The notes under the pieces were generated by a model. It did no database searches. It worked only from the letters and a program-made list of their open reading frames with translations, and was not told the origin of the DNA. The position numbers were made by a program, and so were the translations under genes. From Candidatus Ferrigenium bremense (GTDB taxonomy: Bacteria; Pseudomonadota; Gammaproteobacteria; Burkholderiales; Gallionellaceae), in contig JAGRPI010000002.1 of the NCBI GenBank assembly GCA_019449635.1, positions 21,749 to 85,748 of the forward strand: a DNA stretch of 64,000 bases, in the 5' to 3' direction. Below, one piece after another: positions 1,185 through 47,386 of the stretch (positions are counted from its first letter, which is position 1; each line of letters starts with the position of its first letter).

Positions 1185-1859
1185 TCAATCTTCAATTTCG
1201 ATACACTTTTTATACTGCCCAAAGCTAGGCAACGGCCTTGAGGGATCCCACCCGCGCCACTCTTTGCCGGGGTACATCCGGGACCAATTCTGGTGAGCGC
1301 GGCGAATAAGACGCGTTAACCAAGTGCGGATCCCGTGGTGCATTGGCCTCCTCGTCTGCATCTCGAGGAAGCCAGCCAGCTCTTGAGGCGCAGTCTTCAA
1401 AAGCTGACCGATATGGTGGTCAAGCTGCCGCTGCACGTCAGGCTTGATATGCCACGACCACCTTGTCCCACCGCCCTCTAACCTGTGCCGTTGATCTGAG
1501 TAGAGCACATAGTCGTTCCAGACAACGCGCCCGGGGTTCGTCCTTGCATCCTTCAACTTGCTGTTTTCCTGGATCGGGCCACCGCCATCACTGGCAATCA
1601 GGAACCAGACATACCCGCCCTCCAGCTCATGTTTTGAGGTAGGCGCGACCACGAGGTGCGCATTCGCCAACCCCTTTTTCTTTCGCCAACTTCTTTGGTG
1701 CGGCTTCAGATCCGTGCCGTAATGCTCGCTGAATTTTGCAGCCAGACTATCAAGTTTTTCACGACTGTCGACCACCCCGCCAACCCACCAATGAAAGCCT
1801 TTAGGCACTATACGCAACAGGAATCGCTGCGCTTCAGATTGTCTTGTGAATAGGTTCAT
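1185..1859 (-). CDS. Hypothetical basic, Trp-rich protein (~224 aa) divergent from the permuted intron RNA
   Basis: Long ORF; ATG at 1859 preceded by AAAGGAG RBS (MNLFTRQSEAQ...). Confidence 0.8.
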   Translation of the reverse strand: MNLFTRQSEAQRFLLRIVPKGFHWWVGGVVDSREKLDSLAAKFSEHYGTDLKPHQRSWRKKKGLANAHLVVAPTSKHELEGGYVWFLIASDGGGPIQENSKLKDARTNPGRVVWNDYVLYSDQRHRLEGGGTRWSWHIKPDVQRQLDHHIGQLLKTAPQELAGFLEMQTRRPMHHGIRTWLTRLIRRAHQNWSRMYPGKEWRGWDPSRPLPSFGQYKKCIEIED

Positions 1860-1965
1860 TAAGTTTTCTCCTTTACGACTATAACGCAATTCAAGCGAAT
1901 CGGTTGACATAAGTCAAGCATAACTTAGTGATTGCAATACATGATTAGTTCAACTTCTATAAATA

Positions 1966-2000
1966 GGTTTTTCTGTATATGAAGGTGGTATAGAAAAACC
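1966..2000 (+). promoter_or_regulatory. Candidate extended -10 promoter for the intron RNA, inside a 9-bp inverted repeat
   Basis: TG-G-TATAGA at 1986-1994; arms GGTTTTTCT (1966-1974) and AGAAAAACC (1992-2000). Predicted start ~2001 coincides with the start of the 5' strand that pairs with the RNA tail. Confidence 0.45.
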
Positions 2001-3335
2001 ATCTTCTTTTTTGTTGAACAACATTTATAGGCACAACGTGCTGGTTTTTGGTTAGCGCATCATCGGGGATGGCGTTTCCTACTTCCTTCTTTCACCAAAG
2101 AAAGAGGAAAGCAGGGAGCGTCAACTCCGCCAGATTCCACACGTCAAGGGACGTATGTCCCGGGGTGCCAACCCCAGCTGTTGTTGCTAACAACGGCAAG
2201 CGCTGCTTTGAGCCGTGTGCAGAGAAATTTGCATGCACGGTTCAAGGACGGGGCAGCAGGGTAATCCCGCGCAAGCGGAGTAAACCTGTTGTTCCAGTCC
2301 ATGACTTACATGAAAGATGTAAGGCGTGCGACCAAGAAACGGGGATACGGAGGAAATGCCGTAAACCCTGCTCCATTAGGCAAGGAAGGAAAATCTTGTC
2401 GACGTGTGAATCGTCAACCGTGGGCTGCATGAAAGTGCAGAACGCGAGCCACCTGGGATGGCAGTCTATGCGGAAGAAATTTCTCGCATCGGGCTCATAG
2501 CGAAGTGTTAGAGAGTTCGGAGTACCTGATTGTGAACGTCGTCACGGACGGAAGCATGAAGGACTGGCTGATAGCTTAAACCGGCAAAGCACCTGCAATG
2601 GTGCAATTGGTGGAGTTGCAAAAAAGCCATTGAAAAATGGCCTGGCACTAGGGGTTGAGATACCCCGCTGCTCATCGAAACAGAGTCAATTCCGTAACCT
2701 TACTACTTTACCGCCTTCAGGAGGGTGAAATCGTGGAGATGTGCCGCGAGATAGAGGGTTGATGATCTGGATGATGTCTATGCAACGCAATAAAGATGGA
2801 AGCTAATTGGGGAAATATCAACGTTTTCGCGTGGGGTGGCACTCATGCGGTAGTCGCGTAACGAACGACCGTCAAACGTAGATATGAGAGAGTGGTCCGA
2901 ATAGAGTAAAAAACCGTTGCCCGAAAGGCGCGGTGACCCGGAACATTGGGCGATCGGCTTTGCAGCTGGTCGGAGAGTCTCGAAAGGCTGAGGTAGTGCG
3001 AAACGTGTGGAAAGACCGGGGAACCGGTACTGGTGATGTACTTGAAGGCCGCTTGGCGGCGGCTGGAGAGAGATGTAGCAACCGATGGGATCTTGACGGA
3101 TCCCATCTCAAGAAACACGGCCATTTTTGGCTAATGAATGCCCGTGAGGGTAGGACGAAGCTCGTCCATATTAAGTGGCAGTCACCGTTTAGCTGACTGT
3201 TGTTCTTCAACAAAAAAGAATGCCGTAAGGCAGGATAAGTAATGGGCGCAAGCCCGATAACGCCGGCATAGTCCCGTGCCGGAGAATCGTTCGAGGACAT
3301 AGAAGCCACCTGCAAAGGTGGCTTCTTCTTTTTTA
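2001..3335 (+). ncRNA. Circularly permuted, ORF-less group II intron ribozyme
   Basis: Canonical 34-nt DV at 2210-2243 (GAGCCGTGTGC-AGA-GAAA-TTT-GC-AT-GCACGGTTC; AGC triad). DVI 2246-2300 with bulged A2296 at -7 and terminal AT (2301-2302). Then a 23-nt spacer, then GTGCG at 2326. Many GNRA hairpins follow and a terminator closes the unit at 3301-3334. No DI upstream of DV and no DV downstream of GTGCG. Confidence 0.88.
3301..3334 (+). terminator. Intrinsic terminator of the intron RNA
   Basis: AGAAGCCACCT-GCAA-AGGTGGCTTCT (11-bp stem) followed by TCTTTTTT. Confidence 0.85.
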
Positions 3336-3574
3336 TTGTTTTGTTGTCAAGGGGTCTGCGTAATATGCACCCCCCCAACTTATTCGCGACCAACGGGAGC
3401 CCGCCATACCGTTGAATTTTGTAGTTTTCATCGCCCCCTACATGGGATAGGGAGGGGAGTGATGAGGGGCAGGGGAAGCCGCGAATGAGGCATCCCATCC
3501 CCTCGTCGTTGGGGATGGCGGCCGCCGGGGCGTTTCAAACGCCCCAAAAGGCGAAGTTCAACTCAGGGAGATTA

Positions 3575-3607
3575 AAATAAAAGACCACCTCCGAAGAAGC
3601 GGTCTTT
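3575..3607 (-). terminator. Intrinsic terminator after the 127-aa gene
   Basis: AAAGACC...GGTCTTT stem followed by a T-rich tract on the minus strand. Confidence 0.55.
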
Positions 3608-3616
3608 ACTTACTGT

Positions 3617-4000
3617 CTACGCCACGCCTGCTTTCGCACATTCCAGCGCTTCCGCCAGAGTCGCAAAACAACCCCAGTACGTCGGTCGATCCCATGCTCC
3701 ACCGTCAAGACAATGCACATCAAATCGAATCCCGTTAGGCCAAGCTTTAAACCACTCATCACAACCAATCGCTTCCCAGTAGGCTCGCCGTTGTTCTGCG
3801 TATTCGTCGGTGTGTTTTGCCAAATAAAAACCAGCCTCACAATACGACACAATATATGGCAGCCCGAAGAACTTTTGATGCGATTGCGGGCGTTGATCGT
3901 TAGGCGTGAAATCAAAACCTTTTGGCAACTTCGGATCGACAAGAATGCCCTTAATGCATCTATTGGCTTGGAACGACTTGCCATTGATAATAAATTTCAT
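3617..4000 (-). CDS. Hypothetical protein (127 aa)
   Basis: ATG with GGAG RBS, downstream terminator, conserved-looking C-terminus (FDVHCLDGGAWDRPTYWG). No function recognised. Confidence 0.7.
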   Translation of the reverse strand: MKFIINGKSFQANRCIKGILVDPKLPKGFDFTPNDQRPQSHQKFFGLPYIVSYCEAGFYLAKHTDEYAEQRRAYWEAIGCDEWFKAWPNGIRFDVHCLDGGAWDRPTYWGCFATLAEALECAKAGVA

Positions 4001-38233: not shown

Positions 38234-38344
38234 GCCAACCGTCACGCAAAACTCGTGATGCGAGTTTAGTAGCTCGGAGTTCAAGGCGGACAACCGCCCC
38301 CAGTGCGGTTTTTTTACGTCCGTAAGCATGGCAGGCCAAGTTTT

Positions 38345-38415
38345 GGCGGGCTGTGCGGGGCATCTTCGGATGCGCCGGTTCCTTGACCCGGTCTACTAAC
38401 CTGCACAGTTCCGCC
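38345..38415 (+). ncRNA. C4-type antisense RNA (P1/P7 c4-like)
   Basis: Three-way fold GGCGGGCTGTGCGGG/CCTGCACAGTTCCGCC, GCATC-TTCG-GATGC and CCGG-loop-CCGG. Unpaired TCCTTGA and CTACTAA match target pairs upstream (38264-38286) and downstream (38421-38461). Confidence 0.8.
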
Positions 38416-38469
38416 TCCTCGTTTAGTAGCGGGGGAGCGGGAAATTCAAACCGTTCAAGGAGAATTACC

Positions 38470-46901: not shown

Positions 46902-46978
46902 TGGGGTGGCTGATGGGACTCGAACCCACGACAACTGGAATCACAATCCAGGACTCTACCAACTGAGCTACAGCCACC
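46902..46978 (-). tRNA. tRNA-His(GTG)
   Basis: Full cloverleaf with G-1, anticodon GTG, CCA. Confidence 0.97.
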
Positions 46979-47060
46979 ACTGATGAAGCAATTAGCCATT
47001 CGGCAGAGCCGATAAACAACATCGGCGAGCCGCTGGTTATGAACTTTGCTTGTCTGACAC

Positions 47061-47137
47061 TGGCGTGCCCGACAGGAATCGAACCTGTAACCCCCAGCTT
47101 AGAAGGCTGGTGCTCTATCCGGTTGAGCTACGGGCAC
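47061..47137 (-). tRNA. tRNA-Arg(TCT)
   Basis: Full cloverleaf, anticodon loop CTTCTAA, CCA. Confidence 0.97.
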
Positions 47138-47309
47138 AATTCTTTTCTCTATAAATCCAGATTTCATCCCAACTGCTGCGTTGCGTAAAAAATTTCTTGC
47201 TTGCATATAAAGCATATGCGGCGCTGCGAAATTTTTTCCACGCCCTGCATTTGGGCGAACTCTGAATTTCTAGAGCCACCCTAGGGCTAATTAAAAAGCT
47301 GCTGAAACC

Positions 47310-47386
47310 TGGTCGGGGTGGAGAGATTCGAACTCCCGACATCCTGCTCCCAAAGCAGGCGCGCTACCAGGCTACGCTACACCCCG
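47310..47386 (-). tRNA. tRNA-Pro(TGG)
   Basis: Full cloverleaf, anticodon loop TTTGGGA, CCA. Confidence 0.97.

Follow-up and report, generated by a model that had tools for sequence, protein, structure and literature searches.

The stretch analysed here, called the window throughout, comprises 64,000 nucleotides from Candidatus Ferrigenium bremense (contig JAGRPI010000002.1, positions 21,749 to 85,748). Near its left end lie a divergent AcpG-like gene encoding 224 amino acids (1185-1859, minus strand) and, at 1979-3335 on the plus strand, a region free of open reading frames (ORFs) that we read as a single non-coding RNA gene. Judged from its sequence, this RNA is likely a circularly permuted (CP) group II ribozyme of the class described by Roth, Weinberg, Vanderschuren, Murdock and Breaker (iScience 2021, PMC8637638; hereafter Roth 2021), who found the AcpG protein associated with CP RNAs. 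The elements succeed one another in the order leader, domain V (D5), domain VI (D6), a 23-nt exon, domains I to III (D1-D3) and tail, all features of the RNA given below being on the plus strand. Its length is about 1,220 nt over 2004-3220 and about 1,360 nt if counted from a conserved 5' motif to the terminator, against about 900 nt in the class of Roth 2021. The good likelihood attached to this reading is a joint one, covering a CP ribozyme with a split domain IV, a stem made of two leader-tail helices (H2 and H3), a conserved tail and an outermost helix (H1) restricted to the lineage of the window.

The catalytic core was identified with the Rfam family RF00029, whose full model aligns to D5-D6 at 2208-2302 with 52.9 bits for a gathering score of 40. 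This alignment shows the stem of D5, a GAAA loop and, in D6, the 3' strand CCAGUCCAU, and the match contains the elements characteristic of the CP class, namely a D5 with catalytic triad and bulge followed by a D6 with a bulged adenosine. The GUGCG motif of the 5' splice site, invariant in all 13 aligned sequences, begins at 2326, 23 nt past the end of D6. The segment comprised between the 3' splice site and GUGCG (2303-2325) is the exon, for which release in circular form is predicted. D5-D6 are thereby placed ahead of D1-D3, with the 3' splice site preceding GUGYG by a short linker, which is the permuted order of the class. D1-D3 (2326-2989), including the exon-binding site CCGCCUUC at 2711-2718, fall below every Rfam threshold, and their assignment rests on position, on conservation and on the covariation between exon-binding site 1 (EBS1) and intron-binding site 1 (IBS1). 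No credible ORF was found in 1861-3335, and the four short mechanically called ORFs that were checked gave no Pfam match. As the initial annotation had remarked, the site where a reverse transcriptase ORF would normally sit is empty; like other CP RNAs, this one holds no ORF for an intron-encoded protein. The genome of the window carries a single copy of the RNA. Processing of the RNA by itself into a branched molecule and a small circular exon is a trait of the class and is predicted here.

Homologous loci were collected through homology to the AcpG-like protein, for which 35 homologues of 50-82% identity were found, nearly all of them metagenomic. D5-D6 are divergent from and upstream of the AcpG-like gene in 13 of the 17 loci scanned, consistent with the frequent acpG association of CP ribozymes. 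Across the homologous loci, the 1.3-kb gap ahead of this gene matches the RNA of the window at 67-79% identity. The window and twelve non-redundant metagenomic homologues form the alignment of 13 sequences, called A2, in which the leader-tail pairings were compared.

The initial annotation had described three nested pairings between leader and tail. They are indeed nested, and the minimum-free-energy fold of 1990-3335 contains H1, H2 and H3 together. The innermost, H3, joins 2200-2209, directly 5' of D5, to 2990-2999, on the 3' side of D3, by ten pairs including four G-U pairs, as first proposed. Over the 13 sequences, 94.6% of the alignment cells are paired, a value equalled by none of 500 column shuffles, while helices slid along the alignment gave 36-50%. 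Compensatory changes affect 4 of the 10 pairs, and this level of covariation was again reached in 0 of 500 shuffles.

H3 has a published counterpart. In the cryo-electron microscopy study of the Gdi-1 CP intron (Nucleic Acids Research (NAR), 29 Oct 2026, PMC13717195), domain IV (D4) is split, with the hairpins p1 and p2 carried to the 5' end. The authors of that study describe a helix of 9 bp, omega-omega', between the nucleotides directly 5' of D5 and the 3' part of D4; they state that it reproduces the architecture of the D4 stem and that splicing depends on it. The arms of H3 are the equivalents of omega (2200-2209) and omega' (2990-2999): in both RNAs a helix of 9-10 bp brings together the stretch immediately 5' of D5 and the one that follows D3. 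With H3 at the omega-omega' position, the central inference of the initial annotation, according to which the permutation break lies in domain IV and the stem is restored by leader-tail pairing, is correct and already in print. The statement that this restoration occurs in trans was imprecise, leader and tail being parts of one transcript until the branching step.

The second helix, H2, links 2135-2144 to 3003-3012. The perfect 10-mer initially reported was recovered at these positions, and none of 300 shuffles of the window equals it. Because of indels, H2 was misaligned by MAFFT and helices were searched sequence by sequence instead. A helix of 6-11 bp was found at the homologous place in each of the 13 sequences, with a shuffle fraction of at most 0.06 in every one of them, and the 13 helices represent 10 distinct helix sequences (for instance UUCCACACGU, UUCAGUUUGC, UAAACACAC and GUUCAC). 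H2 lies past the small hairpins of the leader and lengthens the split stem. No helix of this kind is described in the accessible parts of the Gdi-1 paper or of the Roth 2021 consensus structure line. The expectation that leader-tail complementarity would be kept in homologues was therefore borne out in the 13-sequence alignment for H2 and H3 but not for H1, which is treated below. H1 and H2 being perfect Watson-Crick repeats in the window, the complementarities could also be viewed as inverted repeats acting at the DNA level, such as the ends of a mobile element or recombination or binding sites. We consider this highly improbable: 4 of the 10 pairs of H3 are G-U, which can pair only as RNA on this strand, the pairing of H2 and H3 is maintained through sequence change, and the arms sit inside a continuously conserved RNA gene that has a terminator.

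The leader before D5 measures about 205-230 nt, whereas that of Gdi-1 has 58 nt, comprising p1, p2 and omega at U50-U58. Applied to the leader alignment, RNAalifold predicted 35 pairs, and compensatory changes occur in 14 of these. These include an extra leader domain (2046-2135), in which a closing helix 2046-2050/2131-2135 surrounds a long hairpin (2063-2130) bearing CGUCAA at 2119-2124 on its 3' strand. Further downstream lie a covarying hairpin with a GUAU loop, hairpin a (2149-2162), a p1-like hairpin with the loop UGCCAA (2162-2175) and a p2-like hairpin with the loop UGCUAA (2178-2197). The last two share a GCCAA-type loop motif, as do D4p1 and D4p2 of Gdi-1, whose identical loop motifs kiss the D2 and D3 loops (PMC13717195). 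UGGCA-type motifs are also present in the D2 and D3 loops of the window RNA, and each of the p1- and p2-like loops has several possible partners, among D2, D3, the leader at 2050-2058 and the loop of tail hairpin T2. The p2 loop could pair with leader positions 2051-2056 in the window (GCUAAC/GUUAGC) and in several other sequences; this pairing was rejected because it fails in L015 and has competing partners.

Two side observations concern these hairpins. In locus L015 (identical to L016) the sequence is UUUGCC in the p2-like loop and GCAAA in the loop of D3, compared with GCCAA and UUGGC in the other loci, and the two loops resemble swapped sides of a kissing pair. In loci L012, L013, L017 and L022, D6 is much reduced in length and D2 is shorter as well (A2 columns about 980-1000 and 315-350), and the p1-like loop is UAGCCAC in place of UGCCAA; these loci form a second structural subtype inside the clade.

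The tail following D3 covers about 345 nt (2990-3335), so that the appendix of about 500 nt initially announced was too large. Its proximal part, 3015-3200, was resolved by RNAalifold on the tail alignment into seven hairpins: T1 (3015-3028), T2 (3031-3080, loop CUUGGCGG), T3 (3084-3107, loop UUGACG at 3093-3098), T4 (3119-3132), T5 (3139-3152), T6 (3153-3167) and T7 (3178-3200, loop CCGUUUAGC). The T1-T7 module comprises 57 predicted pairs, of which 36 show compensatory changes, and several of its loops and linkers vary little or not at all, namely two UUGGCG-type loops, CCGYUYAGC and the linker GAUGUAGCAAC. The distal hairpins T8 (3221-3232), T9 (3244-3255) and T10 (3263-3282) were found in the closest relatives only. 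The RNA ends with an intrinsic terminator at 3301-3335, detected by scanning, in which an 11-bp stem (3301-3326) is followed by a U-run; it is kept in four close relatives and common to the closest relatives only. The four tail hairpins named in the initial annotation all exist (3084-3092/3099-3107, 3139-3143/3148-3152, 3221-3224/3229-3232 and 3244-3247/3252-3255); of these, the first two are conserved and covary, and the last two are limited to the closest relatives. The tail is no peculiarity of this genome, T1-T7 being common to the whole AcpG-linked clade. Even in the distant L010, whose AcpG is 45% identical, the order of the elements could be recognised by visual reading of the sequence. 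When the supplements of Roth 2021 were searched literally for motifs of the tail, none turned up; the alignments there are gapped, which makes such a search little informative.

Taken together, leader (about 2004-2209) and tail (2990-3335) can be read from the sequences as two halves of one domain IV whose distal end is open. The position between D3 and D5, the basal stem formed by the flanking strands and the peripheral, variable character are those of a canonical domain IV. The canonical domain, however, is a closed stem whose loop carries the ORF of a reverse transcriptase/maturase, whereas in the window the loop is open, holds the 5' and 3' ends of the RNA and has hairpins in place of the ORF. 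Covariation shows that H3 re-forms the basal domain IV stem beside D5 and that H2 continues it, and that the small hairpins of the leader, the p1- and p2-like ones among them, branch off between the two helices. In the mechanism that we propose by analogy with the Gdi-1 structures, these ties would hold the 5' piece, made of D5-D6 and containing the catalytic centre, on the D1-D3 scaffold of the 3' piece. They would act before and also after branching, when only the 2'-5' bond and base pairs link the pieces.

The RNA shares with the CP class of Roth 2021 the placement of D5-D6 before D1-D3, the short linker exon between the 3' and 5' splice sites, the lack of an internal ORF, the small hairpins upstream of D5 and the divergent AcpG-like neighbour. 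In the accessible part of that work, the consensus line has a self-contained D4 hairpin at the 3' end and no leader-tail helices; what the window RNA has in addition is a pair of covarying helices between leader and tail, about 90 nt of extra leader domain and a tail of seven hairpins. With Gdi-1 it shares, besides the helix next to D5, two 5' hairpins with a common loop motif and an ORF-free 3' extension counted as D4. Compared by description, the Gdi-1 paper has neither an H2-like helix nor a conserved multi-hairpin tail, its 3' extension being unmodelled. It is helix H2, the additional domain in the leader and the conserved tail that make the window RNA a new structural variant among CP ribozymes; H3 is already published in Gdi-1.

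All homologues of the RNA adjoin an AcpG-like gene, and the invariant loops of the tail (CCGYUYAGC, the UUGGCG-type loops and the linker) stand amid freely varying stems, a pattern typical of recognition sites. Moreover, the intron-encoded protein of canonical introns has its primary binding site in domain IV (Roth 2021, PMC8637638). The tail, and possibly the extra leader domain, might accordingly be mainly a binding platform for AcpG instead of an RNA-only scaffold. We regard this as unlikely. The linkage is partly a product of the collection, the loci having been found via AcpG; AcpG itself is devoid of any Pfam domain; many CP RNAs have no AcpG nearby and no function of AcpG is known (Roth 2021, PMC8637638); and the conserved loops could equally be RNA-RNA contacts. 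Within the preferred reading, in which the tail is half of the split domain IV, candidate roles of the tail beyond scaffolding are to handle the exon or the circle and to bind AcpG.

One such RNA-RNA contact may be a second tie between the RNA ends, moderately supported by the sequences, in which the T3 loop UUGRCG pairs with the leader motif CGYCAA. In the window, UUGACG (3093-3098) is complementary to CGUCAA (2119-2124). Over the alignment 97% of the cells are paired, and 6 of 500 shuffles equal this value. Ten homologues combine UUGGCG with CGCCAA, the window and L015 are altered on both sides (a C-G column becoming U-A), and L022 and L023 have one mismatch each. On the RNA tree, the switch requires one or two double changes. 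In the Thermus-type CP RNAs described in the accessible part of Roth 2021, the same two motifs join the RNA ends with opposite polarity: UUGGCG occupies the loop of the 5' hairpin P1 and CGCCAA the 3' end, whereas here CGYCAA lies in the leader and UUGRCG in T3. With the motifs swapped, the window RNA does not have the Thermus-type arrangement.

The outermost helix, H1, pairs 2004-2023 with the A-rich segment 3201-3220. The perfect 15-mer 2004-2018/3206-3220 that had first drawn attention is present within these 20-nt arms, which are 95% complementary with one mismatch, and its extension over a 3-nt bulge was also found by duplex folding, at -21.4 kcal/mol. Unrestricted duplex folding of the leader against the tail yielded long spurious duplexes and was dropped. 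In the window, H1 scores 33 for a shuffled mean of 19.3 and is equalled by none of 300 shuffles; by energy, 1 of 500 shuffles equals it. Perfect over 15 nt, paired at 19 of 20 positions in all and included in both the minimum-free-energy and the centroid folds, H1 could be imagined as a functional master clamp that closes the whole molecule and is required for its folding. The closest relative, L012, retains a weakened H1 at the same site (13 of 20 pairs, -12.2 kcal/mol, shuffle fraction 0.07), which also speaks for such a role.

The comparison between loci argues otherwise. Over the 13 sequences H1 is 45.6% paired, compared with 44.2% after shuffling and similar values in slid controls, and in homologues other than L012 its energies are at background level. 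When the 5' leaders of the twelve homologues were searched against their entire own tails, none (0/12) gave a significant helix, the window alone doing so. L013 and L015 have conserved the A-rich 3' arm although their leaders do not match it, suggesting another reason for its retention. Finally, the 5' arm of H1 is a U-run right behind a hairpin: the promoter and terminator scan detected a terminator-like hairpin (1981-1988/1999-2006) followed by a U-run (1981-2015 as a whole), which overlaps the start of the arm. By visual reading of the alignment, a hairpin resembling 1981-2015 is present in close relatives only. The master clamp is for these reasons rather doubtful, and the general clamp suggested by the initial annotation is not conserved. 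Given the lack of conservation in relatives, H1 is better explained as a recent addition of the window lineage, where it may act as an extra outer clamp and add stability. The most conspicuous of the three helices is the least conserved of them.

A further conserved element precedes H1. The conserved region begins with AUGAAGGURG, whose core GAAGGURG (1981-1988) is a candidate IBS1-like element complementary to CYRYCUUC of D1 (2711-2718), the exon-binding site. All 8 positions are paired in all 13 sequences, which is equalled by none of 500 shuffles, and one position alternates between G-C (6 sequences), A-U (6) and G-U (1). As for the exon itself, searching for exact complements of its last bases gave no consistent column for EBS1; a register-by-register comparison gave one. 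The last exon base pairs with the third position of EBS1 (C-G in 6 sequences, U-A in 4, U-G in 3) and the second-last base with the fourth (G-C in 10, A-U in 2, G-U in 1). The real exon end fits the exon-binding site less well than the 5' motif does, with 4-6 pairs out of 6. GAAGGURG may be a mimic of IBS1 or, alternatively, a site acting at the DNA level. An IBS1 mimic could keep the exon-binding site closed until folding is complete; alternatively, it could displace the circle after back-splicing and serve as a product-release or anti-reversal lock. We put forward only tentatively that GAAGGURG is an intramolecular IBS1 mimic and that the split domain IV, with H2, the T3 kissing loop and the tail, works as a regulatory module. 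If true, the split domain IV of this lineage would be a regulatory module and not a leftover scaffold.

Transcription was assessed from RNA-library contigs of three metatranscriptome runs. They cover 2274-2814 and 3169-3326, the second stretch ending at the terminator stem, as well as the AcpG-like gene; cover is zero on 1944-2240 and 2832-3127. These contigs give weak support to transcription of the tail up to the terminator.

Several points weigh against the reading of the RNA as a CP ribozyme with base-paired leader and tail. The 13 sequences split into about two clades, so several of the covariations may reflect few events. To the control-level pairing of H1 across the family is added that the leader motif CGYCAA can also pair within its own hairpin, and that the GCCAA/UUGGC motif occurs in at least 8 places, which makes the kissing partners ambiguous and the p1- and p2-like loops impossible to assign. 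No RNA contig spans leader to tail, and the metatranscriptome runs belong to the same study as the likely DNA source. The promoter scan found no sigma-70-type promoter in 1800-3450; with neither a promoter nor an RNA contig over 1981-1988, the inclusion of 1981-2023 in the RNA is only presumed.

CP group II ribozymes give rise to RNA circles, and their use for the production of circular RNA is under development. The opened domain IV described here is not a remnant, as it contains about 500 nt of conserved structure besides the published omega-omega' pairing. It offers elements that can be mutated in order to ask how covalently separate halves remain assembled after branching, what AcpG binds, and whether the 5' terminus of the RNA itself controls exon binding.

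The RNA lineage is rare in genomes. Searching the DNA of 60 relatives' genomes returned only one D5-like 36-mer, in one genome, and a search of genome contigs for related loci with the AcpG alignment found none. An AcpG profile search over 400 genomes of the class retrieved a single genome with two distant homologues of 260 amino acids (L026 and L027), and no D5 was detected within 1.5 kb of either. One of these two loci has a weak CRISPR repeat match (28.7 bits for a gathering score of 35). A 19-nt leader pattern searched in 185,000 species genomes gave 58 matches in genome contigs, where about 70 are expected by chance according to our estimate, and 1 in viral contigs; none of them fits the RNA profile (nhmmer).

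The spacing between gene and ribozyme is about 120-140 nt in all loci except L010, where the RNA lies 1.35 kb from the AcpG-like gene. The two are separated there by short repeats built on GAGTCAC/GTCACG, about 1.1 kb in all (about 2150-3360 of that locus, minus strand). In the DNA run X1, the likely source and a small one (58 million letters), window positions 1500-3700 reach a word depth of about 3,900-4,400-fold, which may reflect enrichment or a high-copy element, and minor one-letter variants occur at 1846-1936. Elsewhere in the window, Rfam detected a C4 antisense RNA (38339-38421, 61.9 bits) and, at 46905-47386, three minus-strand tRNA genes.

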